Shown here piece after piece: positions 3,326 through 54,426 of a stretch of 64,000 bases of DNA. Numbering within the stretch: position 1 is the stretch's first letter; every line of letters starts with the position of its first letter. Source of the stretch: Thermoanaerobaculia bacterium (GTDB lineage Bacteria > Acidobacteriota > Thermoanaerobaculia > Multivoradales > UBA5704). The notes beneath the pieces were generated by a model. The model worked only from the letters and a program-made list of their open reading frames with translations, had not been told where the DNA came from and made no database searches. The DNA lies in contig DASWME010000013.1 of assembly GCA_036399915.1 (NCBI GenBank), positions 1,724 to 65,723 of the forward strand, given 5' to 3'. The translations under genes and the position numbers were made by a program.

Positions 3326-4600
3326 ATGCGCGTCCACTTTACCAACCTCGGCTGCAAGTTGAACCAGGCGGAGATCGAGCGCCTGGCGCGGGAGTTCGCG
3401 GCCGCCGGCCACAAGGTGGTGGAGTCGCTCGCCGAGGCGGACCTCCACGTCGTCAACTCCTGCACGGTGACGGGCACCGCGGCCCGCGCCTCGCGCAAGG
3501 CGGCCGGCCGGGCGCGGCGGTCGGGCGGCCCGCGACGGACGCGCACCGTGCTGACCGGCTGCCACGTCTCTGAATCGCCCGCGGCGGCGGCGCGGCTCGC
3601 GGGGGTGGACCTCGTCGTGCCCAACGCCGAGAAGGACCGCCTCCTCGCCCGCGTCCACGAGGCCTTCCCCGATGCCATCCCCAGAGCGGACGCGGACCTG
3701 TCCGCGCCCTGCGCGCCCCTGCCGTCCGGCAACACCCGGGCCCTGGTCAAGGTGGAGGACGGCTGCAACATGCGTTGCTCCTTCTGCATCATTCCCTTCA
3801 CCCGGGGGGCGCAACGGAGCCGGCCGCTGCCTGAGGTCGTGACGGAGGTGCGGGACCTCGTCCGCCAGGGCCGCCGCGAGATCGTGATCACGGGCGTCCA
3901 GATCTCGGCCTACCGCTGGCAGGGCGTCCGCCTCGCCGGGCTGGTGCGGGCGCTCCTCGCGGCGACCGACATCCCCCGCCTGCGCCTCACCTCCATCGCA
4001 CCGTGGGACCTCGACGAGCGGCTCCTCGATCTGTGGGAAGACCGCCGCCTCTGCCGCCATCTCCACCTCTCGCTGCAGAGCGGCTCCACCGCCACCCTGC
4101 GCCGCATGCGCCGCCCCTACACGGCGGAGGGCTACCTCGACCTCCTCGGCCGCGTCCGCGCCGCCGTCCCGGGTGTCGCCGTCACCACGGACGTCATCGT
4201 GGGCTTCCCCGGCGAGACCGGGGCGGAGTTCGCCGAGAGCCTCGCCGCCGTCGCAACGGCCGGCTTCGCCAAGGTCCACGTCTTCCCCTACTCCCCGCGC
4301 CCCGGCACCGAGGCCGAGGGGATGCCGGGCCCGGTCCCTCCCGAGGAGAAGAAGGCCCGGGTCGAAGCCATGCTGGAGGTCGCCGCCCGCGCCGAGCGAA
4401 ACTTCCAGCGCGCCCACCTCGGCTCGCGCCAGACCGTCCTTTGGGAGAGGCCGAAGGACGGGATGGGTCACGGGCTGACCGACAATTACCTCCGCGTCCT
4501 CAGCCCGTCCGGGGCCGCCCTCTCGAACCGCTTCAGCGAAGTGGAGCTGGAGGAGATCGCCCAGGACGGAATCGTGGGCAGGATCGTCGCGCCGATGTGA
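3326..4600 (+). CDS. mtaB: tRNA t6A37 methylthiotransferase (radical SAM, MiaB-like family)
   Basis: TNLGCKLNQAE, VNSCTVT, KVEDGCNMRCSFC (CxxxCxxC), HLSLQSGS, DVIVGFPGET, HVFPYSPRPGT. Confidence 0.9.
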   Translation: MRVHFTNLGCKLNQAEIERLAREFAAAGHKVVESLAEADLHVVNSCTVTGTAARASRKAAGRARRSGGPRRTRTVLTGCHVSESPAAAARLAGVDLVVPNAEKDRLLARVHEAFPDAIPRADADLSAPCAPLPSGNTRALVKVEDGCNMRCSFCIIPFTRGAQRSRPLPEVVTEVRDLVRQGRREIVITGVQISAYRWQGVRLAGLVRALLAATDIPRLRLTSIAPWDLDERLLDLWEDRRLCRHLHLSLQSGSTATLRRMRRPYTAEGYLDLLGRVRAAVPGVAVTTDVIVGFPGETGAEFAESLAAVATAGFAKVHVFPYSPRPGTEAEGMPGPVPPEEKKARVEAMLEVAARAERNFQRAHLGSRQTVLWERPKDGMGHGLTDNYLRVLSPSGAALSNRFSEVELEEIAQDGIVGRIVAPM

Positions 4601-4630
4601 CAGAGAAAGGCCAGCGCGCGTAGACCAAGC

Positions 4631-4879
4631 GTGGACCTCTCCTCAGGCTCCCTCGGCTGCTTCGAATGGGTCGTCCGCGTTATCTTCTGGGTGCTTCTCT
4701 GGCTCGGGAGGGACGAACTGGGACCAGGGTGGTTCTGGGGGCTCGCAAGTTTCTGGCTGGCTGGCTGGTGGATCTCTACGCTGGTCCCGGGCGGCCCCTA
4801 CCTCTTCACGTCCCTGCTCGCCTTGATCGACATCGCCCTGGTCCTGGTGGTCCTCCAGGGGGATGTCCGGCTCACCTGA
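4631..4879 (+). CDS. Small integral membrane protein
   Basis: 82-aa Trp-rich hydrophobic ORF filling the mtaB-ubiG gap. Confidence 0.5.
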   Translation: MDLSSGSLGCFEWVVRVIFWVLLWLGRDELGPGWFWGLASFWLAGWWISTLVPGGPYLFTSLLALIDIALVLVVLQGDVRLT

Positions 4880-4914
4880 GATAGGCCATGAATGTTGCTT
4901 GCAGGAGGGCGGCG

Positions 4915-5688
4915 ATGCCGGTCGACAACCAGCTCTACGACGAGATGGCGGACTCGTGGTGGGACGAGGACGGGTTCCTGCACGTCCTGCAGGGGCTCAA
5001 CCCCGCCCGGTTCGGCTACATGCGGCGGGTGATCGTGGACGAGTTGGGAATCGACCCCCGCGGCAGGAAGACCCTCGACGTGGGCTGCGGCGGCGGTCTC
5101 CTCGCCGAGGAGTTCGCGCGGCTGGGCTGCGACGTGACCGGCATCGACCCCTCCGAGAGGTCCCTGGAGGCGGCCCGGGCCCACGCGCGGGAGGAGGGCC
5201 TCGCGATCGGTTACCGCCAAGCCACCGGCGAGCACCTGCCGTTCCCGGACGCGGCGTTCGACCTCGCCTACTGCTGCGACGTCCTGGAGCACGTCGAGGA
5301 TCTGGGGAAGGTCATCGCGGAGATCTCTCGGGTGCTCAAGCCCGGCGGGACCTTCCTTTACGACACGATCAACCGCACCCTACGGAGCAAGCTGGTGATG
5401 ATCAAGCTCCTCCAGGAGTGGAGCTGGACGAGCTTGATGCCCCCCGACCTCCACGACTGGGGGAAGTTCATCAAGCCGCGGGAGCTGGTCTCGCTGATGG
5501 CCGCGCACGGCCTGCGGAACCAGGACCTGACGGGGCTCAACCCCGCCAGCCTGCTCCGCGCCTTCCGAGCCCTCCGAGCCCGCAAGCGGGGCGAGATCAG
5601 CTACCTGGAAGCCGCCCGGCGGATCGGCCTTCGGGAGAGCCGGGACAAGAGCATCCTGTTCATAGGGTACGCGACCAGGACGGACTGA
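4915..5688 (+). CDS. ubiG: UbiG-like SAM-dependent O-methyltransferase
   Basis: WWDEDG..L..LNPAR, LDVGCGGGLLAE, CCDVLEHV, TINRT, HDWGKFIKP. Confidence 0.8.
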   Translation: MPVDNQLYDEMADSWWDEDGFLHVLQGLNPARFGYMRRVIVDELGIDPRGRKTLDVGCGGGLLAEEFARLGCDVTGIDPSERSLEAARAHAREEGLAIGYRQATGEHLPFPDAAFDLAYCCDVLEHVEDLGKVIAEISRVLKPGGTFLYDTINRTLRSKLVMIKLLQEWSWTSLMPPDLHDWGKFIKPRELVSLMAAHGLRNQDLTGLNPASLLRAFRALRARKRGEISYLEAARRIGLRESRDKSILFIGYATRTD

Positions 5689-5757
5689 AGCGGGCCTGGT
5701 CGTCAGCGGCCCGCCGGGCCGTGGCGCATCCCGACCGGCTGTGCTACAAGAGCCCCC

Positions 5758-6564
5758 ATGTTCCTCGCCGCCGCCGTCCAGCTCACCTCGACCTCCGACG
5801 AGGACGCCAACTGGAAGAGCGCCCGGTCGCTGATCGAGCGCGCCGCCTCCTCCGGCGCCCGGTTCGTGGCCACGCCGGAGAACACCAACTACCTCGGTCC
5901 CCACGAGGAGAAGGTGCGGCGCGCCGAGCCGCTCGACGGCCGGACCTGCACCCGCTTCTCCGAGCTCGCCCGGCGGCTCGGCATCCACCTCCTGCTCGGC
6001 TCCTTCAACGAACGCAGCGACGAGGCGTCGCGCTGCTACAACACCAGCGTCTTCTTCTCGCCCGCCGGAGAGGTCCTCGCCACCTACCGCAAGATCCACC
6101 TGTTCGACGTGGACGTGCCCGGCGGGGTGCGCTTCGCCGAGTCGGCGACCTGCAAGCCGGGGGAGGGGACGGCCGTGGTGGAGACCCCCCTCGGCCGTTT
6201 CGGCCTGACGATCTGCTATGACCTGCGCTTCGCGGAGCTGTACCGGCGGCTGACAGACGAGGGGGCGGAGATCCTGATGATCCCCTCCGCCTTCACCCTC
6301 GCCACCGGCAAGGACCACTGGGAGCCGCTGCTGCGCGCCCGCGCCATCGAGACCCAGTGCTGGGTCATCGCCCCGGCCCAGCACGGCCGCCACGACGACC
6401 AGGGTCTCTCCCACACCTGGGGTCACGCCATGATCGTCGATCCCTGGGGGATTCCGGTCGCGACCGCCGCGGACGGCCCCGGCCTCGCCCTCGCCGAGAT
6501 CGACCTCGACCGCGTGGCGCGGGTGCGGCAGGCCATCCCGGTGGCCCGGCACCGGCGGCTGTAG
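5758..6564 (+). CDS. Carbon-nitrogen hydrolase (Nit1/deaminated glutathione amidase-like)
   Basis: E-K-C triad motifs TPE, YRKIHLFD, ICYDLRF; RARAIETQ. Confidence 0.9.
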   Translation: MFLAAAVQLTSTSDEDANWKSARSLIERAASSGARFVATPENTNYLGPHEEKVRRAEPLDGRTCTRFSELARRLGIHLLLGSFNERSDEASRCYNTSVFFSPAGEVLATYRKIHLFDVDVPGGVRFAESATCKPGEGTAVVETPLGRFGLTICYDLRFAELYRRLTDEGAEILMIPSAFTLATGKDHWEPLLRARAIETQCWVIAPAQHGRHDDQGLSHTWGHAMIVDPWGIPVATAADGPGLALAEIDLDRVARVRQAIPVARHRRL

Positions 6565-21447: not shown

Positions 21448-21676
21448 TGACCTGCAGGGCAAGCCGCGTGCCCTTCAGGTCAAAGAGCCTGCCCTTCGGG
21501 TCAAGCGGCGTGCCCTTCAGGTCAAGGCCCTGACCTGCAGGTCAAGCCGCCTGCCCTTCAGGTCAAAGGGCCTGCCCTTCAGGTCAAGCGGCGCGCCCTT
21601 CAGGTCACGCCCATGACCTGCGGGTCAAGCCGCGTGACCTTCAGGTCAAAAGGCCTGACCTTCAGGTCAAGAGGCC
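21448..21676. repeat. Tandem array of 11 units (21 bp; units 4 and 8 are 20 bp) with TG(A/C)CC-N4-GGTCA core
   Basis: Units read directly, e.g. TGACCTGCAGGTCAAGCCGCC; 83-bp higher-order period. Confidence 0.95.
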
Positions 21677-21810
21677 TAGGGTCTGAAGAAGATTTGAGCC
21701 TGCCAGGGCCTGCAATGGCTCTTTGCGGAGAAGGATGGGCATTCCCCTTTCTCTATTCACAATGCACCCCTCTCTGGCTATACTTTCGGGCCAGATCGGC
21801 AGCGCTTGCG

Positions 21811-25461
<3,651 letters not shown>

Positions 25462-45631: not shown

Positions 45632-45806
45632 GTTCCGCGCGATTGTGGCGGCTCGGCGGGACCGTCAAGACATCACTTAGGAGATTGGCGAACCTTTGAA
45701 TACAATACGCGGGTAGCGCCCGGGAGTGTCGCCTCCGCCGTGTCACGTCCCACACGCCGGAGGCACCGAGGTACTGTGGAGCCCTTCCTTCCATGGAGAT
45801 CGTTGC

Positions 45807-47279
45807 ATGCCGCGCAAGCTCACGTTCCGGCAGCTTCTCCTGTCCATCCTGGCGCTCTGGCACGACGTCAGCCAGAAGGAGATGGCCGCCGCCGCCGGCA
45901 TGTCCCAGAGCCGCGTCTCCCAGCATCTGAGCCGCGAGCGCGGCGGCGAGATCAAGGACGAGGACTTCGAGCGCCTGCTGGCGGCCCTGAAAGCCAAGCC
46001 CGCGGAGGTGCGGCTGGTGACGGCCTGCCTCGAAGGCCTCGACGCCCTGGAGGCGTCCGAGGACCTCACTGAGGAGGAGCGGGCCGAGATCGAGGAGGCG
46101 GCGCTCGCCGCCGCGCGCTTCGCCCGCGAAGGCCTCACCGAGGCCGTCCGCCGCTCCCGGACGGTGCCGGTCGAGGCCTACCCCGAGCCCCAGCAGGTCA
46201 AAGTGGCCCGCCGCCGGGCCGAGGAGCAGTGGCGGCTGTTGGCGGACCTTCCGTCCGAGGCCAGGCTGGCCGTGGTAAGCGTGGCCGCGGAGTTCCAGAA
46301 CTGGGCGCTCTGCGAAAGAATCTGCGCCGAATCCACGCAGCGAGCGTCGCGCAGCGTCGAGGAGGCGGCAGACCTGGCGCGGCTCGCCGAGGCCATCGCG
46401 GAGCAGGTCCGCGGACCCGAGGGCTGGCGCCTGCGGGTCCAGAGCTACGCCAGCGCGCACGGGGCGAACGCCCTCCGCGTCGCCGGCGAGCTGAGGGCGG
46501 CAGAGGCTGGCCTCGAGAGGGCCAGGCGGCTCTGGCACGCGGGCTCAGATCCCCATGGGCTGCTCGATCCCGGCCGGCTGCTCGACCTGGAGGCGTCCCT
46601 GCGCCGGGATCAACGCCATTTCGCCGAGGCCCTGGCCCTCCTCGACCAAGCCGCGGCCGTGGGCCGCTCCCCCGGGCGCGTCCTGATCAAGAAGGGGTTC
46701 ACGCTGGAGGTCCTGGGCGAGTACGAGCGCGCCATCGAGGCCCTCCTCAGGGCGGCACCCCTGGTGGAGCGCCAGGGCGATTCGCGGCTGCTCTACATGC
46801 AGCGCTTCAACCTGGCCGTCCTCTGCTGCCATCTGGGCCGCTTCTCCGAGGCCACCGAGCTGCTGGACCAGGTGCGGGACCTGGTTACGGAAAGAGGCGA
46901 CGCCATCGAGCTCAACCGCGTGACCTGGCTGGAGGGCCGCATCGCCGCCGGGCTGGGCCGGCCGCACGAGGCTCTCCGGCTCCTGAGGCAGGCCCGGGAG
47001 AGGTTCGCCGCGGAGAGGATGTCGTACGACGTGGCCCTGGCGCTGCTCGAAGAGGCGGTGCTCCTCCTGGACCAGGGCCGTGCTGCCGAGGTCAAGGTCC
47101 TGGCCCAGGAGCTGACCGAGGTGTTCCAGTCGAAAGGAGTGCACCGCGAGGCCCTGGCCGCCCTGCGGCTCTTCAAGGATGCGGCGGACCAGGAAACCGC
47201 CACGGCCGCGCTGGCCCGCCGGGTCCTCGCCTACCTCTTCCGGGCTCGCCACGACCACGGCCTGCGGTTCGAGTCATGA
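45807..47279 (+). CDS. XRE-HTH + TPR regulator, copy 2A
   Basis: VSQKEMAAAAGMSQSRVSQHL HTH; TPR body with WALCERIC, ANALRV, LLDLEASL. Confidence 0.9.
   Translation: MPRKLTFRQLLLSILALWHDVSQKEMAAAAGMSQSRVSQHLSRERGGEIKDEDFERLLAALKAKPAEVRLVTACLEGLDALEASEDLTEEERAEIEEAALAAARFAREGLTEAVRRSRTVPVEAYPEPQQVKVARRRAEEQWRLLADLPSEARLAVVSVAAEFQNWALCERICAESTQRASRSVEEAADLARLAEAIAEQVRGPEGWRLRVQSYASAHGANALRVAGELRAAEAGLERARRLWHAGSDPHGLLDPGRLLDLEASLRRDQRHFAEALALLDQAAAVGRSPGRVLIKKGFTLEVLGEYERAIEALLRAAPLVERQGDSRLLYMQRFNLAVLCCHLGRFSEATELLDQVRDLVTERGDAIELNRVTWLEGRIAAGLGRPHEALRLLRQARERFAAERMSYDVALALLEEAVLLLDQGRAAEVKVLAQELTEVFQSKGVHREALAALRLFKDAADQETATAALARRVLAYLFRARHDHGLRFES
46210..47279 (+). repeat. About 1.07-kb direct repeat of 47982-49051 (shared TPR-coding region)
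   Basis: Gapless at offset 1772, roughly 90% identical by eye; 5' HTH regions unrelated. Confidence 0.9.
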
Positions 47280-47507
47280 GCAGGGTCGGCCGTCGGGGTC
47301 CATGCCGCAGCCTGCCTCAATCTCGGGCCCAGGCTGGGGAGCGGTGTTGCAGTGGCCGCTGGGGTCCATCCCGCAGCCTTCCTTGGTGGACGATCCGCTG
47401 CCAAGCAAGGACAGAAACGTCCGGAACGGGCCGAGGAGGTCGGGCCGGGGGCCCGGCGAGGTGAGGAGGGAGGAGGCAAGGGCCAGGGCGACGAGGATGC
47501 GTTGCAT
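47274..47507 (-). CDS. Secreted peptide precursor with two GCGMDPxG cores (peptide P2)
   Basis: MQRILVALALASSLL...; cores KEGCGMDPSGHC and EAGCGMDPDGRPC; shares the TCATGA stop palindrome with 2A. Confidence 0.8.
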   Translation of the reverse strand: MQRILVALALASSLLTSPGPRPDLLGPFRTFLSLLGSGSSTKEGCGMDPSGHCNTAPQPGPEIEAGCGMDPDGRPCS

Positions 47508-47623
47508 GGGATCATCTCCTGCGCGGCGCCCGGCCGCGGCCGCCATGGCTCGCGCGGGCCGCGCCCGTAATCTTAGGTGTGGGGCCGGCGAAAATTCGCC
47601 AATTTCCTAAGTGGGGGGATCGG

Positions 47624-49051
47624 ATGAGACGAGAGCATCTGCTGGCCCGCCTGCTGCGGGCGGTCTCCGGCAAGACCCAGGAGCAGTTCGGCGAGGAAAC
47701 CGGCGTGCACCCCTCCCTCATCGCCTTGATCGAGCTGGGGAAGGCCACGCCCGGCCGCGACCTTCTGGAGCGAATGGCGCGCTGCGCCTCGATCTCCCTG
47801 CCGGACGCCGACGAGGTCCTCGGCTCGTACGAGACGCTCCGCAGGACGCCCCAAAGGCAGGGCGGTGGTGTGGAGGACCTCTTCCGCGAGATCACGGAGA
47901 GGTTCGATACCTGGGCCAGGGCTGCCTACGGCCGTCTCCTGCGCCTCCCCCTGCCGGACCAGTCGCCGCGGGAGGAGGATCGCCGCCGGGCCGAGGAGCA
48001 GTGGCGGTTGTTGGCGGATCTCCCATCAGAGTCCAGGCTGGCGGTGGTGCGCGTGGCCGCGGAGTACCAGAACTGGGCGCTCTGCGAAAGGGTTTGCGCC
48101 GAATCGACGCAGCGAGCATCGAGCAACGTGGAGGAAGCGACGGCCCTGGCACGCCTCGCCGAGGAGATCGCGGAGCGGGTCCGCGGCCCCGAGGCCTGGC
48201 GCCTGCGGGTCCAGGGCTATGCCAGCGCGCACGGGGCGAACGCGCTGCGCGTCGCCGGCGAGCTGAGAGCGGCGGAGGCTGGCCTCGAGAAGGCCAGGCG
48301 GCTCTGGCACGCGGGCTCGGACCCCGAGGGATTGCTCGATCCCGGCCGTCTGCTCGACCTGGAGGCGTCCTTGCGCAGAGATCAACGCCGCTTTGCCGAG
48401 GCCCTGGCCCTGCTCGACGAAGCCGCGGCCGTGGGCCGCTCCCCCGGGCGCGTCCTGATCAAGAAGGGATTCACGCTGGAGGTCATGGGCGAGTACGAGC
48501 ACGCCATCGAGACCCTCCTTCAGGCGGCGCACGTGGTGGAGCGCCAGGGCGATGCGCGGCTTCTCTACATGCAGCGCTTCAACCTGGCCGTCCTCTGCTG
48601 CCATGTGGGCCGCTTCTCCGAGGCCACCGAATTGCTGGACCAGGTGCGGGACCTGGTTACGAAAAGGGGCGACGCCATCGAGCTCAACCGCGTGACCTGG
48701 CTGGAAGGCCGCATCGCGGCGGGCCTGGGCCGGCCGCACGAGGCCCTACGGCTCCTGAAGCAGGCGCGGGAGAGGTTCGCCGCGGAGAGGATGTCGTACG
48801 ACGTGGCCCTGGCGCTGCTGGAGGAGGCGGTGCTGCTCCTGGACCAGGGCCGCGCTGCCGAGGTCAAGGTCCTGGCCCGGGAGCTGACCAGGGTGTTCAA
48901 GTCGAAGGGAGTGCACCGCGAGGCCCTGGCCGCCCTGCGGTTGTTCAAGGATGCGGCGGACCAGGAAACCGCCACGGCCAGGCTGGCCCGCCGGGTGCTC
49001 GCCTACCTCTTCCGGACCCGCCACGACCCCGGCCTGCGGTTCGAGTCATAA
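47624..49051 (+). CDS. XRE-HTH + TPR regulator, copy 2B
   Basis: KTQEQFGEETGVHPSLIALIELG HTH; TPR body near-identical to 2A. Confidence 0.9.
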   Translation: MRREHLLARLLRAVSGKTQEQFGEETGVHPSLIALIELGKATPGRDLLERMARCASISLPDADEVLGSYETLRRTPQRQGGGVEDLFREITERFDTWARAAYGRLLRLPLPDQSPREEDRRRAEEQWRLLADLPSESRLAVVRVAAEYQNWALCERVCAESTQRASSNVEEATALARLAEEIAERVRGPEAWRLRVQGYASAHGANALRVAGELRAAEAGLEKARRLWHAGSDPEGLLDPGRLLDLEASLRRDQRRFAEALALLDEAAAVGRSPGRVLIKKGFTLEVMGEYEHAIETLLQAAHVVERQGDARLLYMQRFNLAVLCCHVGRFSEATELLDQVRDLVTKRGDAIELNRVTWLEGRIAAGLGRPHEALRLLKQARERFAAERMSYDVALALLEEAVLLLDQGRAAEVKVLARELTRVFKSKGVHREALAALRLFKDAADQETATARLARRVLAYLFRTRHDPGLRFES

Positions 49052-50977
49052 ACCGGGGTTGCACCGGCCGTTGACACCACCTACATCTACGACGACCCCG
49101 CGGTGCCGTTGTCCAAAGGCCGCCTGACGAAGATCGCCAGAAGCGGCTCCGAGGTCGCCTACGCCTACGACCGCTTCGGAAGGGTCACCCAGGATGGCGA
49201 GCTGACCTATCGATACGACCAGAACGGCAACCGCGCCGAGATCGGCTATCCTGGAGGGGTGACCGCGCGCTTGACGCACAACTTCGCCGACCGGGACGCC
49301 TCGCTGGAGGTGCAGGCGGGGAGCGCGGCCCCGCAGGCGATCGTTTCCGGCGCCCGCTACAAGCCCTTCGGCCCGCTCGCCGGCTTCACCTTCGGTAACG
49401 GCCTGGCCGAGATCCGGAGCTTCGATCCGCGCTACTTCCCCAGCCGCATCGAAGTGCCGGGGCGGTTGGACCAGCTCTACTCGACCGACAGGGTCGGCAA
49501 CGTTCTCAGCCTCAACCGGGCGGTGGGAGCGGACCGCTTCTTCTCGACCTTTGTCTATCAAGATCCACAGTACTTCTTGACCGAAGGCAACGGCCCCTGG
49601 GGACGGCGGGCCTGGAGCTACGACCGCATCGGCAACCGACTGAGCGAGATCCCCCCGGTCGACCTCGATCCGCCGGTGGAGATCTTCACCTACTCCTACC
49701 CCTCCAACCAGGCGGGCGGCCATAACCCCAAGCTGTCACGTATTGAACCGGCGCCGGGAGGAGAGCCGGGGAGCCATTTAGATTACGGCTACGATGCGTC
49801 CGGCAACGAGACCACGGTAGCCGCAGTCACCGGCGAAGAATCGGGCCGGACGAGCTTCCTTACGTACAGCGCCGAGAGCCGCCTCTCCCGGCTCTCGACG
49901 AGCGATGGGACGGCTTCGACCGAGCTGCTCTACGATGGCCGCGGGTTCCTGCGGCGCTCCCGGCTGACCTTCTCGAACTCCACTGACTTCGAGCAAACCG
50001 AGCCCACCTACAGCTCTGAAGGGCTGCTGTTAGCTCGCAAGATCCACCAGCAGAACACCCGCGGCGGGCGAGGAGATACGGGAGCCCCACCCTCGAGCCG
50101 AGTCGTCATGGAGACGGCCTACCTCTTCTACTTCGCGGGCCGGCCGGTGGCGCAGTTGACGCGACCGCAGGCGGGAGGGGGAGCGGATACGCTCCTCTAC
50201 CTCACGACCGATCATTTAGGCACGCCTATCCAGGCCACGGACGTGGCGGGCATGCTCGTGTGGGAGGGAGGACTCGATCCGTTCGGCACGCCGTTCGTTT
50301 TCCCTGCCCCCCGGCCTCCAGGGGAGGGTGAAGACCCGCAGGAGCCGCCCGAAGGTGAAGATCAGAGCGCCGCAGCCACGGCAACGATGGAGAGCGCAGG
50401 GATTTTCCTACGCTTCCCCGGCCAGTGGGATGACTCGAGTTTCCGCTCGCATGGTTTGCGGGGAGGGTTGTATTACAACGTGCACCGTTACTACGACGTG
50501 AGCACAGGCCGGTACACGAGGCCGGATCCGATTGGGCTGGCCGGCGGCGAAAACCTATATGTGTACGTCGGCGGAAACCCGATCACGTCCGTAGATCCAA
50601 CGGGCTTAATCGACGAGACTCGCTTCCCCACGCCCGACGAGATCGCCGAACTAACGCAGCGTCACTGTGCTCGCCAGGCCATTCTGCGGAACTACGGCGA
50701 CATGCGAGAGGCAAACTGGAGGCGCTCTGACAAGTACTTCCACTGCAAAGCAACCTGCGAGGCAGCAAGGTGTGGCACATTCGGCTTCAAGGAGGCTTGT
50801 GGGCTCGGCGACTTGCGCGAGTTCTTCGACCGACTGTTGGGAGATCCGATCAGCGCCTCGCAGGCGGATCAAGCGGCTAACCGTTTTGGCCGTGAGGAAG
50901 CGGGCAGGAAACCGAACTTGACTTGCCAGATTATCTGTTCGCAATATCGGCCGGCAGGCTTGCCGGAGAGGTACTGA
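49052..50977 (+). CDS. N-terminally truncated (orphan) RHS/YD-repeat protein with serum amyloid A-like C-terminal tip
   Basis: YD repeats (YAYDRFGR, YRYDQNGNR, WSYDRIGNR), DHLGTP, LRFPGQ, YYNVHRYYD, PDPIG...NP...DPTG core end; first possible start GTG 49103. Confidence 0.9.
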   Translation, partial: TGVAPAVDTTYIYDDPAVPLSKGRLTKIARSGSEVAYAYDRFGRVTQDGELTYRYDQNGNRAEIGYPGGVTARLTHNFADRDASLEVQAGSAAPQAIVSGARYKPFGPLAGFTFGNGLAEIRSFDPRYFPSRIEVPGRLDQLYSTDRVGNVLSLNRAVGADRFFSTFVYQDPQYFLTEGNGPWGRRAWSYDRIGNRLSEIPPVDLDPPVEIFTYSYPSNQAGGHNPKLSRIEPAPGGEPGSHLDYGYDASGNETTVAAVTGEESGRTSFLTYSAESRLSRLSTSDGTASTELLYDGRGFLRRSRLTFSNSTDFEQTEPTYSSEGLLLARKIHQQNTRGGRGDTGAPPSSRVVMETAYLFYFAGRPVAQLTRPQAGGGADTLLYLTTDHLGTPIQATDVAGMLVWEGGLDPFGTPFVFPAPRPPGEGEDPQEPPEGEDQSAAATATMESAGIFLRFPGQWDDSSFRSHGLRGGLYYNVHRYYDVSTGRYTRPDPIGLAGGENLYVYVGGNPITSVDPTGLIDETRFPTPDEIAELTQRHCARQAILRNYGDMREANWRRSDKYFHCKATCEAARCGTFGFKEACGLGDLREFFDRLLGDPISASQADQAANRFGREEAGRKPNLTCQIICSQYRPAGLPERY

Positions 50978-50986
50978 GGGTTGGCG

Positions 50987-51142
50987 ATGTCGAAATCACC
51001 GCGTGTCCTTTCGTTGGCCATTCTCGCGGCGTTGGTGGTCGCGGCGGTCATCTTTACGTGGCTTTGGCGGCAGCTTCAGATCGATAGGTGTCTTGACCGC
51101 GGAGGCAGTTGGGATTACTCCGCGGGTGCGTGCAAGCAGTAG
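50987..51142 (+). CDS. Candidate immunity protein, 51 aa, single TM + Cys pair (below ORF-track cutoff)
   Basis: Own translation MSKSPRVLSLAILAALVVAAVIFTWLWRQLQIDRCLDRGGSWDYSAGACKQ; GAGG upstream; 9 nt after the RHS stop. Confidence 0.7.
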   Translation: MSKSPRVLSLAILAALVVAAVIFTWLWRQLQIDRCLDRGGSWDYSAGACKQ

Positions 51143-51216
51143 CAATTGCGGCTTCTGCGGTAGGATGGGGCAAGACACCCATGGGACCGCTACCTTGATC
51201 AGGCACGCTGGGACTG

Positions 51217-51312
51217 ATGGCCGCTGTAGCCAGCGGCGAGGGCTCAGGGCGGACGAGTTTCCTCGACTACAGCGCCGAAAGCCGCCTCTCCCGGCTCTCG
51301 ACGAGCGATGGA
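51217..51312 (+). pseudogene. Relic fragment of a second RHS core
   Basis: Encodes SGRTSFLDYSAESRLSRLSTSDG vs SGRTSFLTYSAESRLSRLSTSDG at 49817-49909. Confidence 0.8.
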
Positions 51313-52398: not shown

Positions 52399-52746
52399 AT
52401 GCATGGCAAGAAGACCCCGGCAGTCCTCTGGTTGACGGTTGCACTCCTGGGGCTGGTGGCCACGGGCTGCGGCAAGGGATACAAGCAGATCGTGGTCATC
52501 GACAGCGGGGCGGCGGAGTGGGTGACCCTCGGGAGGGGTCCCAGGAAGCCACAGGAGGAGAAGATCTGGGTCCCCGGCAGAACCCTGGTCTTCCGCACGG
52601 ACTCGACGGTTCCGGGCGCCCCGACCAGCGCCAAAGGCAAGGCCGGGCACGTCTACCGGCTCAACGACCAGTTGGAGATGGAGGAGATCGGCGAGTTTCC
52701 GCTCACCATGCCCAACGACACGCTGGCGTACCAGTACGGGACTTGA
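52399..52746 (+). CDS. Putative lipoprotein
   Basis: Signal peptide with lipobox VATG-C; AGGAGG RBS. Confidence 0.7.
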   Translation: MHGKKTPAVLWLTVALLGLVATGCGKGYKQIVVIDSGAAEWVTLGRGPRKPQEEKIWVPGRTLVFRTDSTVPGAPTSAKGKAGHVYRLNDQLEMEEIGEFPLTMPNDTLAYQYGT

Positions 52747-52877
52747 GGGCGGCCGCGCTCTCCTCCCGGTCGTCGGACGGCGAGCCCTGCGCTGGCGGCC
52801 AGGTTCTCCTCGGCATAGACCTTGGTGGAGCGGCGCGCGGATGGAGCGCCTCCTCCGGGAGCGGTATACTGCGAGGC

Positions 52878-53108
52878 ATGTCACCCACGGCTGAAGAGGT
52901 GCTCAAGCAGGCGCTCACGCTTGATGAGAGCGATCGAGCCTCGGTCGCCGGAGCCTTGATCGAGAGCCTCCACGAGCAGGTGGATCCGGACGCCGAAGAG
53001 GCCTGGGACGCGGTAATCCGGCGACGGGTCGAGGAGTTGGAGTCGGGAGCCGTTGAGACGATTCCTTGGACCGAAGTGAGGAAGCGTCTGTTCCGTGGCT
53101 TCGAGTGA
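52878..53108 (+). CDS. Putative addiction module antitoxin (TIGR02574-like)
   Basis: AL.L...DRA..A..LIESL...AW...I.RR..EL.SG....IPW.EV. Confidence 0.85.
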   Translation: MSPTAEEVLKQALTLDESDRASVAGALIESLHEQVDPDAEEAWDAVIRRRVEELESGAVETIPWTEVRKRLFRGFE

Positions 53109-53391
53109 GCTACGTTGGCATCCCGCAGCGCTTACGGATGCAGAGGAGGCGAGGAGCTGGTACGCGGAGCGCAGTCCCTTGGCCGCCCGCGGGTTCCTCC
53201 TTGCTCTCGATCAGGGCATCAAAGCGATCCTGGAGGCGCCGGAACGCTGGCCCAAGCATCGCTACGGATGCCGGCGCTATGTCTTCCCGAATCAGTACCC
53301 GTACACGCTGATCTATCGGCTCACGCCAGGCGTTGAAATCGTCGCGGTGGCCCATCAGAAGCGGCGGCCTGGCTATTGGAGGCACCGTTGA
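53095..53391 (+). CDS. ParE/RelE-family toxin
   Basis: HPAA..D..EA..WY, PERWP, FPY.LIYR, IVAVAHQKRRPGYW; overlaps the antitoxin. Confidence 0.85.
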   Translation: MASSELRWHPAALTDAEEARSWYAERSPLAARGFLLALDQGIKAILEAPERWPKHRYGCRRYVFPNQYPYTLIYRLTPGVEIVAVAHQKRRPGYWRHR

Positions 53392-54426
53392 CTAGAACAT
53401 ATACGCCACAGCGAAGGCCACCTGCGCGCCCATCATCATCAGGTACATGTGCTTCCAGGAGGGGTGGTTCTCCGTCGCGGTGAGCGAGTCCGGATCGCGC
53501 AGCAGCAGGTAGACCGTGTAGACGCCCCAGACTGTGAACAGCACGCCGAAAGCGGTGAGGAGCCAGGGGTTGCCGGTGAGGATGGGGTGCGACGGGTTCT
53601 GGGGATCGGGGAGGAAGGCGCCCAGGGGCACGAAGAGCCAGGGGAGCACGAAGAACGGGGCGATGATCCAGGCGGCTTTCTTGACGCCGTAGAGGATCGG
53701 CAGCGTCTTGCAGCCGCCGGCGCGGTCCCCCTCGATGTCGGCGAAGTCCTTGGTGGACGAGGCGCCGATCAGGAACAGGCCGATGACGCCGCCGATGTAC
53801 CAGGGCTCCGTGTACCAGACGTGGGCCACCATGGCCCATCCCGCCACCTTGAGCAGGACGCCGCGGGGGATCGCGATGGTGAAGTTGGCGAGCATGCCGC
53901 GCGTCTTGGTCCGCCCCAGCTCCGGCGCCGAGTAGACGAAGGTGAAGAGCAGGCCCGCGAGATAGATGAAGAACGTCACGTGCTCGGCGAGGGGCGCCGT
54001 GAGCTTCTGCTCGAGGGTCACGTACGGATAGGGGACCACCAGCCAGGTGGGGATCAGCGCCAGGGCGTAGAAGAGCCAGGTGAAGCCCCAGGCTTCGCGC
54101 AGCGAGAGGGCGCCGGTGACCAGCGGCCGGTTGGGCTTGTTGAGCCGGTCGATCTCGAGGTCGTAGATCTGGTTGATGGCGTTCGAGGCCGCGTTCATGA
54201 AGCTCGCGCAGAGGGAGCCCAGGACGACCGTGAGCACCACCGAGGGGGTGAGGCTGCGGGAGGGGTCCGGGTTGTGCACCGAGCCGAAGGCGCAGATCGA
54301 GCCGGAGACGATGCCCAGCAGCGGCGGCAGCAGGGTGAACGGGCGCGCGAGCTGCGTATAGAGCTGGAGCTTGGACGCCCCCGGCTTGCCCGGGACGGAA
54401 GACGACGAAACGGCTGCGGACTTCAT
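53392..54426 (-). CDS. UbiA-family prenyltransferase (DGGGP-synthase/chlorophyll-synthase-like branch)
   Basis: NQIYDLEIDRLNKPNRPL, YSAP, KDFADIEGD..GCKTLP. Confidence 0.9.
   Translation of the reverse strand: MKSAAVSSSSVPGKPGASKLQLYTQLARPFTLLPPLLGIVSGSICAFGSVHNPDPSRSLTPSVVLTVVLGSLCASFMNAASNAINQIYDLEIDRLNKPNRPLVTGALSLREAWGFTWLFYALALIPTWLVVPYPYVTLEQKLTAPLAEHVTFFIYLAGLLFTFVYSAPELGRTKTRGMLANFTIAIPRGVLLKVAGWAMVAHVWYTEPWYIGGVIGLFLIGASSTKDFADIEGDRAGGCKTLPILYGVKKAAWIIAPFFVLPWLFVPLGAFLPDPQNPSHPILTGNPWLLTAFGVLFTVWGVYTVYLLLRDPDSLTATENHPSWKHMYLMMMGAQVAFAVAYMF

Follow-up and report, generated by a model that had tools for sequence, protein, structure and literature searches.

Within the window, the 64-kb stretch of a 72-kb contig that was analysed as a whole, an RHS fragment abuts the gene for an HTH-TPR regulator. 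The fragment, its C-terminal tip and the small gene that follows lie on the forward strand (Table 1), and the stop-to-stop frame of the fragment, which starts at 49052, is the frame of the regulator gene. This frame stays open for 641 codons, for which the chance is ~3e-6 at the local base composition, and the same ORF (49103-50977) was called by the gene caller in a public collection. Pfam searches detected RHS repeats (PF05593) and the RHS domain PF03527 (aa 366-395) in this ORF, and the NCBIfam profile Rhs_assc_core matched with 66.5 bits (cutoff 32.5), its end coinciding with the L of VDPTGL (nt 50606-50608), exactly at the tip boundary. BLASTP comparison of the frame with a 1613-aa relative (P0014) gave 44% identity (E=4e-161) between residues 7-641 of the query and 1003-1613 of the subject; RHS homology sets in at residue 7 of the stop-to-stop frame (nt 49070-49073), upstream of the first start codon. 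Full-length RHS-SAA relatives are 1410-1825 aa long and combine RHS repeats, DUF6531 and a C-terminal serum amyloid A (SAA) domain, and a complete RHS shell (~1400+ aa) with an N-terminal trafficking domain (PAAR, DUF6531 or VgrG-linked) is absent here, where 624 aa are present. Judged from these alignments, the gene retains the C-terminal ~38% of a full toxin, its last ~610 codons, and is devoid of its native start: the first ~1000 codons are gone, and with them the delivery domains and the greater part of the shell. Because the shell and the trafficking domain are missing, we classify the gene as an orphan fragment and not as a functional RHS toxin; truncated in this way, the cassette would by itself be unable to form an RHS shell or to be delivered. 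Expression from the internal GTG is nevertheless conceivable, since the ORF is fully open. The polymorphic toxin proposed in the initial annotation is thus recognizable in an SAA tip fused behind an RHS core within a toxin/immunity cassette, but the gene is 5'-truncated and not deliverable.

Table 1 Features of the RHS-SAA cassette and its borders, in positions of the window
Feature	Position	Strand	Basis or remarks
Breakpoint	49049..49072	+	TAA stop of the upstream HTH-TPR regulator (49049-49051) and 21 nt not derived from RHS, in the RHS frame
5'-truncated RHS shell and core	49073..50608	+	~residues 1003-1485 of a full-length RHS-SAA toxin; BLASTP, Pfam
624-aa ORF from GTG, the longest one with a possible start codon	49103..50977	+	no Shine-Dalgarno-like sequence upstream
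RHS-associated core domain (aa 433-502), ending in ...RYYDVSTGRYTRPDPIGLAGGENLYVYVGGNPITSVDPTGL, the autoproteolysis/tip-boundary motif	50399..50608	+	TIGR03696
Predicted toxin tip, prok-SAA (Lipocone superfamily), 122 aa	50609..50974	+	profile, phmmer, model, conservation
Predicted active-site His46	50741-50743	+	
Thr50 in place of a near-invariant Asn	50753-50755	+	
Predicted active-site Glu72	50819-50821	+	
Predicted active-site Asp88	50867-50869	+	
Predicted active-site Asn92-x-x-Gly95-Arg96	50879-50893	+	
Shine-Dalgarno-like GAGGG, 6 nt before the immunity ATG, overlapping the toxin stop codon	50976..50980	+	sequence reading
Predicted immunity gene of the Imm-SAA type, 51 aa (53 aa from TTG at 50981)	50987..51142	+	synteny, conservation, model
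84-bp remnant of another RHS copy	51228..51311	+	homologous to 49825-49908 (ORF aa 233-269)

An assembly chimera at the regulator/RHS junction was suspected because the 3' end of the regulator is a repeat, and was ruled out by an independent 192-bp Logan contig from soil run X1 that covers 48950-49141 with zero mismatches; in other Logan contigs of this run, the sequence before position 49073 is a different one and RHS-like (...TLIDYPDNTL). Positions 50328-51302 are matched perfectly by a separate Logan contig. The GC content is 0.59-0.61 across the tip versus ~0.70 in the flanks, and the GC3 of the cassette is 0.79 versus 0.87-0.96 in the neighbouring genes. The RHS remnant downstream of the immunity gene (84.5% identity over 84 nt in blastn, 76% over 38 aa in tblastn) is, by its sequence, a scar left by recombination where the cassette ends on its 3' side. 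Apart from this scar, neither further RHS sequence nor a full-length RHS gene was found in the 64 kb, and the ORFs scanned across the window contained no T6SS, PAAR or VgrG domains. Between 48900 and 51500, sigma-70 promoters were not detected and terminator-like sites occurred at chance level, both scans being uninformative for this organism.

The last 122 codons of the ORF matched the SAA profile PF00277 with E=1.6e-24 and 86.6 bits (gathering cutoff 30.8) over profile positions 13-102 of 102, and phmmer comparison of the tip with PDB sequences retrieved human SAA1 (4ip8, E=9.9e-16) and mouse SAA3 (4q5g, 1.1e-15). The HMMER alignment to 4ip8 holds 44 identities in 98 columns, of which 10 are gap columns that represent a bacterial Cys-containing insert (NLTCQIIC); 44 of the 88 aligned residues are identical. 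The likeness to SAA1 had been pointed out in the initial annotation from the peptide encoded at 50606-50977, which is identical to our translation and ends in ...YRPAGLPERY and a stop codon; the 29 identities counted there in the gapless DMREAN-ADQAAN block of 61 columns recur in our alignment, the shared C-terminal RPAGLPE.Y is real, and the family membership that it anticipated is confirmed by the Pfam score. Its count of seven Cys, unlike SAA1, was also exact: they occupy positions 21, 47, 51, 56, 65, 107 and 111, whereas animal SAAs have none. Four of them form a twin Cx3C motif present in ~90% of relatives, and sequence comparison identifies the seven-Cys set as a subfamily feature and not a peculiarity of this copy. 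We infer solely from co-occurrence that C47/C51 would be bonded to C107/C111, and C21 to C56.

The AlphaFold2 model of the tip (pLDDT 89, pTM 0.82) comprises helices at 10-36, 43-54, 58-78, 82-101 and 107-110, that is, a predicted four-helix cone with a short fifth helix, as required by the SAW clade. A Foldseek search of the PDB with this model returned SAA structures exclusively (target-normalised TM 0.87-0.91; next match E>2), the best being 6pxz_B and 4ip9_A with TM 0.90-0.91 and rmsd 1.8-1.9 A. On the strength of sequence and model, the tip is a genuine SAA-family domain (prok-SAA, Lipocone superfamily) behind an RHS core, with similarity far beyond chance. The window does derive from a soil metagenome assembly, but the probability that the likeness is an artefact, owing to mis-assembled animal DNA or to convergent low-complexity similarity, is practically negligible: the tip continues the reading frame of the RHS core at ~60% GC, carries the bacterial-specific Cys pattern and insert, lies within the mismatch-free Logan contig and has relatives in 45 bacterial genomes and 1435 representative clusters. 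Contamination with animal DNA is refuted by the RHS fusion, the Cys pattern, this contig and the bacterial relatives.

Such domains were defined as 'prok-SAA', a Lipocone-superfamily tip of polymorphic toxins that is paired with 'TM+Imm-SAA' immunity proteins and from which animal SAA was proposed to descend (Burroughs, Nicastro and Aravind, eLife 2025; PMC12419801). Acidobacteriota and other phyla were reported to have prok-SAA delivered by T6SS or MuF together with 'TM+[TM+TM+]Imm-SAA', and the upstream neighbours of Imm-SAA in the published network include Prok-SAA (75) and RHS (17) (PMC12419801); bacterial SAA also features in Zamocky and Ferianc 2023, as cited there. The present tip shares with prok-SAA (SAW clade) the domain itself, the predicted residues H2 His, H3 Glu, H4 Asp and sNxxGR, the short fifth helix, the C-terminal position in a polymorphic toxin and the TM-anchored immunity protein, and the prok-SAA table contains close relatives with the same seven Cys (MCB1054655.1 and RLE26703.1; PMC12419801). 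There is no difference in kind, the present copy being a 5'-truncated orphan with the substitution N50T.

The active site of Lipocone/SAW domains is defined by these His, Glu, Asp and sNxxGR positions (PMC12419801), which are matched in the tip by H46, E72, D88 and N92-x-x-G95-R96, the last site reading A91-N92-R-F-G95-R96; their enzymatic role is predicted. Among 161 family members, D42, F45, H46, E72, D88 and G95 are each conserved in 160, N92 in 159, R71 in 157 and R96 in 155. Position 50 departs from this pattern, with Thr here versus Asn in 159 of the 161 relatives, animal SAAs included. Given that this position is near-invariant and lies four residues, one helical turn, after the predicted catalytic His46, the present tip may be weakened or inactive through N50T.

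Animal SAAs (human SAA1, 4ip8/4ip9; mouse SAA3, 4q5g/6pxz) belong to PF00277 like the tip, have the helix bundle predicted for it in the model (rmsd ~1.9 A) and share with it the motifs D-K-Y-F-H, R-E, A-D-Q-x-A-N-x-x-G-R and R-P-x-G-L-P. They differ in being secreted, stand-alone proteins without Cys, the NLTCQIIC insert, an RHS carrier or an immunity partner, and they are known for binding HDL or retinol, for signalling in the acute phase and for forming amyloid. Like them, the tip could be imagined to act without catalysis and to kill by binding lipid or oligomerising at the membrane and so permeabilising it or sequestering its components, with the polar residues serving for binding: the sole solved relatives are lipid-binding proteins, mouse SAA3 was crystallised with the isoprenoid retinol (6py0), no member of the SAA family is known to have an enzyme activity, and the Lipocone paper itself terms catalysis by SAA a prediction (PMC12419801). 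We nevertheless consider this distinctly improbable, as the His/Glu/Asp/Asn-x-x-Gly-Arg set is present in 155-160 of the 161 sequences from bacteria and animals alike and maps onto the catalytic positions of the characterised Lipocone enzymes TelC and PTDSS1/2, and such residues are rarely fixed by mere amphipathic binding.

TelC of Streptococcus intermedius, a T7SS LXG toxin with lipid II phosphatase activity that is paired with TipC (Whitney et al. 2017, as cited in PMC12419801), is, in that account, the only Lipocone toxin to have been characterised by experiment. Its site of action lies outside the cytoplasm, as does the membrane-associated immunity protein that neutralises it, and we use TelC as the working model for the present tip, although it belongs to another Lipocone clade (ClaspCone-CapCone-TelC), is delivered by T7SS LXG and not by RHS, and has an immunity protein of unrelated fold. 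Motifs of PF00277 were noted in 2020 in Rhs proteins of E. coli O157:H7 (PMC7216683). In RhsD of this strain (z0651/EDL933_RS02870), an SAA-like tip lies behind DPLGL (...DQFFHCMAFC..., ...DLAVNDHG...) and is followed by a small TM protein; there, however, the gene is full-length and the tip far more divergent. RhsD, which has a PF00277 motif in common with other PAAR-Rhs proteins, was read by the authors as host-directed and not antibacterial (PMC7216683). The 86-aa protein downstream of RhsD was considered as a member of the present immunity family and rejected, lacking the D-x-C-L-D-x-G-G motif.

The intact gene that the initial annotation had placed downstream of the toxin does exist, and its product belongs to a conserved family of small, membrane-anchored TM proteins. 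It consists of a basic N-terminus and one TM helix followed by IDRCLDRGGSWDYSAGAC, in keeping with the family motif, one TM helix plus D-x-C-L-D-x-G-G-x-W-x6-C, and retains all the invariant residues (D35, C37, D39, G41, G42 and C51). Homologues lie directly 3' of the SAA tip in 23 of 45 genome loci, which belong to Acidobacteriota, Alpha-, Beta- and Gammaproteobacteria and Campylobacterota, as well as in all four metagenome loci with DNA and in Roseovarius; in six frames of 312 kb the motif occurs 27 times, 23 of them directly behind SAA tips. A single-sequence search with the 53-aa protein found no match, too few 5-mers being shared, but a profile built from 28 synteny-derived sequences collected 163 proteins. 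Pfam yielded only sub-threshold matches to the TM segment, and NCBIfam no match. The AF2 model (pLDDT 90.7) has a helix at 7-39 and a beta-hairpin at 43-45/50-52. Net charge is higher on the N-side than on the C-side of the helix in 26 of 28 family members, which fits a predicted N-in, C-out topology with the conserved disulfide domain facing the periplasm. Imm-SAA was described as one or more TM anchors with a helix, four strands and four conserved Cys (PMC12419801), whereas the present protein has one TM helix, one beta-hairpin and two invariant Cys; other members of the family match the published notation, P0256 and P0275 by three TM helices and P0183 by a tandem copy of the motif that brings the Cys to four. 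Compared by published description and notation, the present family is very likely Imm-SAA.

We read the locus, with a probability of roughly 0.8, as an orphan cassette of toxin and immunity gene that belongs to an RHS polymorphic toxin system; its host would be a diderm soil bacterium of high GC, probably an acidobacterium. For the toxin we infer the following mechanism. In a full-length toxin, the tip would be held inside the RHS shell, cut off after DPTGL and released into the periplasm of a neighbouring cell, where the twin-Cx3C disulfides would form. The pocket of His46, Glu72, Asp88 and Asn92 would then cleave a phosphate-linked head group off a lipid carrier in the membrane, for which TelC, as the analogue, points to lipid II or a different undecaprenyl-PP-linked precursor as the likeliest candidate. 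On the periplasmic side of the inner membrane the tip would be blocked by the immunity protein, whose N-terminus would lie in the cytoplasm and whose single TM helix would lead to a periplasmic hairpin stapled by a disulfide. Toxicity, substrate and compartment of prok-SAA are predictions, here as in PMC12419801. At the present locus the toxin part is most likely silent because of its truncation; the layout in other genomes suggests that it could act as a reserve, its tip being available for recombination onto a full-length rhs gene, and the immunity gene alone could protect against neighbours with the same toxin.

In enterobacteria, orphan rhs-CT/rhsI modules lie downstream of a main rhs gene and consist of a 5'-truncated fragment with homology to the core, a tip and an immunity gene, and their tips are thought to be swappable onto the main gene through homologous recombination. 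An equivalent RHS-SAA layout is found in Methylocaldum: in M. gracile genomes, a main RHS gene (1357 aa) is followed by an orphan RHS-SAA gene (418 aa) and a 49-aa immunity gene. The enterobacterial modules sit by the main rhs, however, and no such gene lies within the 64 kb here. It is worth considering, as a rather unlikely case, that the toxin half is a relic in decay and that selection acts only on the orphan immunity gene, as a guard against the RHS-SAA toxins of neighbours. The 5' truncation with neither native start nor Shine-Dalgarno sequence, N50T and the RHS scar downstream would agree with decay, as would an immunity gene that keeps its own Shine-Dalgarno sequence and every invariant residue, and Melittangium boletus has an Imm homologue without an adjacent SAA toxin. 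Yet the 641 codons of the toxin frame are still open and all its other conserved residues intact, and orphan RHS-SAA fragments of 377-418 aa have been retained in two complete Methylocaldum genomes. The orphan cassette is our preferred reading.

A genome-based description of this toxin/antidote family appeared in 2025 (PMC12419801), and the present locus is a further example. The envelope-directed action suggested in the initial annotation fits the membrane-anchored, predicted periplasm-facing immunity protein, but as an idea it is not new: the proposal that SAA had an ancestral activity against bacteria, directed at the envelope, has been set out at length (PMC12419801). What the locus adds is the 5' truncation with its orphan status, the immunity-gene family and N50T.

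What serum amyloid A, a major acute-phase protein of humans, primarily does in biochemical terms is still debated. In bacteria its relatives occur as toxin tips that are accompanied by dedicated, periplasm-facing immunity proteins, from which it is argued that the fold evolved against the bacterial envelope; this argument for an origin in envelope attack has been in print since 2025, and the locus leaves that picture unchanged. A bolder proposal, which we hold tentatively and at somewhat less than even odds, is that the SAA fold is an enzyme: the tip and the catalytically intact animal SAAs would cut phosphate-linked head groups of periplasmic undecaprenyl or other envelope lipid carriers, and the immunity protein would provide, in its 20-residue disulfide hairpin, a natural minimal inhibitor plugging the active-site cone. 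The enzyme reading has been published as a prediction and is favoured, at the level of sequence, by residue conservation and by the topology of the immunity protein. The locus offers usable details in this respect, namely a compact tip/immunity pair of 122 and 51 aa, a natural N50T beside the predicted catalytic His and a clear case of a truncated orphan, and, if the proposal is true, Cys-stapled tips with their mini-inhibitor would be a tractable system for assigning a biochemical activity to human SAA.

The HMM search that the initial annotation had proposed as a check on the likeness of the RHS tip to animal serum amyloid A (SAA) gave a significant match: the last ~100 residues of the RHS-SAA open reading frame (ORF), at whose C-terminal end translation places the peptide quoted in that annotation, scored 86.6 bits against Pfam SAA (PF00277; E=1.6e-24; gathering score, 30.8) over profile positions 13-102 of 102. 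Human SAA1 (4ip8, E=9.9e-16) and mouse SAA3 (4q5g) were the best matches among PDB sequences, and alignment to 4ip8 reproduced the quoted DMREAN..ADQAAN block exactly, with 29 identities in 61 columns without a gap; the tip also contains seven Cys, as originally counted. An AlphaFold2 model of the tip with 12 homologues as input (pLDDT 89, pTM 0.82) comprises helices 10-36, 43-54, 58-78, 82-101 and 107-110 (tip numbering), and a Foldseek search seeded with this model recovered only SAA structures from the PDB (target-normalised TM 0.87-0.91, rmsd 1.8-2.1 A), with no non-SAA structure below E=2. The proposed likeness is borne out in full by PF00277, PDB sequences and modelled fold, and the tip is a member of the SAA family, with the SAA fold at the level of the model. 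With the profile used, this family comprises 1435 representative clusters (E<=1e-3) among 1.84 billion proteins.

Residues D42, F45, H46, R71, E72, D88, N92, G95 and R96 are almost totally conserved across 161 sequences; the His, Glu, Asp and sNxxGR positions coincide with the active site as defined for the Lipocone superfamily (PMC12419801). The twin Cx3C motif (C47, C51 and C107, C111), which presumably links helix 2 with the short fifth helix, is kept in ~90% of these sequences, and C21 and C56, which co-occur in ~20% of members, probably pair with each other, so that C65 would be left free. Tip position 50 (50753-50755), one helical turn past the predicted catalytic His46, is Thr (ACC) here and Asn in 159 of the 161 relatives, animal SAAs included. 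This Thr is backed by an independent contig without mismatch; it may be due to selection having relaxed on a silent orphan, and could mark decay or represent a natural variant in activity.

Features of the locus and its surroundings
Feature	Position	Strand	Length	Remark
1336-aa ORF	21451-25461		1336 aa	GC3 0.88 (coding-like)
First HTH-TPR regulator	45726-47279		517 aa	
Second HTH-TPR regulator	47579-49051		490 aa	
RHS-SAA ORF	49103-50977	+	624 aa	GTG start
Putative immunity gene	50987-51142		51 aa	GAGGG 6 nt before start, overlapping toxin stop codon
RHS scar	51228-51311		84 bp	84.5% identical to 49825-49908
Lipobox-like ORF	52399-52746		115 aa	
Type II toxin-antitoxin pair	52863-53391			PF09720, PF05016
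UbiA prenyltransferase	53392-54426	-		

Upstream of the tip, RHS repeats and PF03527 are followed by the RHS-associated core (TIGR03696, ORF residues 433-502, 66.5 versus 32.5 bits), which stops precisely at VDPTGL, the motif that marks the tip boundary. The core region contains a low-complexity insert rich in Pro and Glu (PAPRPPGEGEDPQEPPEGEDQSAAATATMESAG; ~50330-50450, ORF residues ~410-450), where P0014, a 1613-aa full-length relative, has a shorter, unrelated stretch. Full-length relatives with a terminal SAA domain reach 1410-1825 aa, with DUF6531 and many RHS repeats; the window frame aligns to residues 1003-1613 of P0014 (44% identity, E=4e-161). The RHS homology begins before the first possible start codon, 21 nt past the TAA of an HTH-TPR regulator gene with which the RHS fragment shares its reading frame, and no Shine-Dalgarno-like sequence precedes the GTG of the ORF. 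Except for the scar, tblastn detected no further RHS sequence anywhere in the 64-kb window. A Pfam scan of 30 other ORFs found no T6SS; these ORFs include regulators, the ParE/antitoxin pair and housekeeping genes (LptD, malate synthase, XseA, thiolase, FadB-like). The GC content drops from ~0.70 to 0.59-0.61 across the tip and immunity gene, and GC3 is 0.79 in the RHS-SAA ORF versus 0.87-0.96 in neighbouring genes.

The window belongs to a 72-kb soil-metagenome contig. An assembly error at the regulator/RHS junction is ruled out because an independent Logan contig from a matching soil sequencing run (X1) spans 48950-49141 with zero mismatches; the junction is therefore real. Other contigs of this run are ~94% identical from 49073 onward and RHS-like upstream (…TLIDYPDNTL followed by DTTYIYDD…), so that the soil community contains a longer relative, possibly a full-length paralogue or strain variant. 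The two tandem regulator genes (XRE-type HTH plus TPR) are paralogous, their 3' ends are repeated (47228-47285 versus 49000-49057, 90% identity), and the second terminates at the RHS breakpoint. Truncation, junction and the GC and GC3 pattern together characterise the locus as an orphan rhs-CT/immunity cassette, a status that we consider likely. In complete genomes of Methylocaldum gracile, an RHS-SAA fragment (377-418 aa) and a 49-aa gene show the same layout as in the window but adjoin a main RHS gene (1357 aa).

The putative immunity protein runs from MSKSPR through a TM helix to IDRCLDRGGSWDYSAGACKQ, and its AF2 model (pLDDT 90.7) consists of one long helix (7-39) and a beta-hairpin, in which the two Cys are placed so that they could clamp the hairpin onto the end of the helix; D35, C37, D39, G41, G42 and C51 are invariant in the family. 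In 26 of 28 family members, the N-side carries more positive charge than the C-side, and the Cys-stapled hairpin is therefore predicted to face the periplasm. A homologous small ORF directly follows the SAA tip at all 4 metagenome loci with DNA, in a Roseovarius MAG and at 23 of 45 loci from GTDB species genomes, including Holophagales, Thermoanaerobaculia, Steroidobacteraceae, Rhodanobacter, Stenotrophomonas, Rhodospirillaceae and Campylobacteraceae. Across all six frames of these 45 loci (312 kb), the pattern C-[LFIMV]-[DENS]-x-G-G has 27 occurrences, 23 of them just after the tip. Loci whose tips have at least four Cys carry the immunity gene in 21 of 27 cases; Cys-poor SAA domains without an RHS core (Bacteroidota, Melainabacteria) mostly lack it. 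We regard the RHS core with its cleavage-boundary motif and the conserved gene pair as established.

A profile of the immunity family retrieved 163 proteins (46-110 aa), none of which has a name or a Pfam domain. Three TM helices are present in the homologues P0256, P0275 and P0224, and P0183 (81 aa, metagenome) carries a tandem mini-domain (IDSCLDAGGAWDYTKQAC…DSCFDAGGIWDEINNQC) with four Cys. Imm-SAA was described as a helix plus four strands with four Cys (PMC12419801); since the three-TM and tandem four-Cys versions match the notation and description of that paper, the family is very probably Imm-SAA. In the Roseovarius MAG (4582-5740), RHS core end and SAA tip lie in different frames (frameshift or pseudogene), and the Imm-type gene (5249-5443) is followed by a further RHS fragment (5560-5736), making this a second cassette flanked by RHS debris. 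In Melittangium boletus (5568-6165), a 54-aa homologue is preceded by a DUF4279 protein instead of an SAA tip and lies shortly before a large RHS gene; it could represent an orphan immunity gene, or else be paired with a different toxin. Downstream of P0006, an orphan 111-aa tip on JGI contigs within a toxin/immunity cassette array (Sel1, Tlde1, Ntox44), the small TM protein gives way to a 143-aa YbbD_head-domain protein, so that this tip may use alternative immunity.

The toxin-antitoxin pair (Unstab_antitox and ParE) sits on the margin of the same low-GC island, adjoining the UbiA gene. The N-terminus of the 115-aa ORF is lipobox-like (…LVATGC), and the ORF matched neither Pfam nor NCBIfam; a BamE-like lipoprotein is the other immunity type that the literature pairs with prok-SAA. 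No Pfam family matched the 1336-aa ORF at E<=1e-5.

Burroughs, Nicastro and Aravind (eLife 2025, PMC12419801) united SAA, Wnt, TelC, VanZ and PTDSS in the Lipocone superfamily, derived animal SAA from prok-SAA toxins and proposed that it cuts head groups of outer-membrane or isoprenoid carrier lipids; their network upstream of Imm-SAA lists Prok-SAA (75) and RHS (17), and they cite Zamocky and Ferianc 2023 for bacterial SAA. The seven Cys of the window tip recur in close relatives listed in their Prok-SAA table, MCB1054655.1 and RLE26703.1. In E. coli O157:H7, seven PAAR-Rhs proteins were reported in 2020 to contain PF00277 motifs (in-silico study, PMC7216683); EDL933 RhsD indeed has an SAA-like tip, albeit divergent, but the protein encoded downstream of it is not of the same family as the window's immunity protein. 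The initial reading of the tip was essentially correct, but this kind of system had already been described, and both the animal-SAA link and the predicted envelope target are published. The locus is a new, truncated member of that system, a classification to which we assign a probability of about 0.9.

In a full-length toxin, the tip would be freed after DPTGL and reach the periplasm of the target cell, where it would be oxidised; the oxidised tip might then act on a phosphate-linked lipid head group, by analogy with TelC on lipid II. We propose this lipid-carrier phosphoesterase mechanism tentatively. An immunity protein predicted to face the periplasm is in line with PMC12419801, which concluded that interception of Lipocone toxins takes place outside the cytoplasm. 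The tip/immunity pair of this locus is neat material for functional work.
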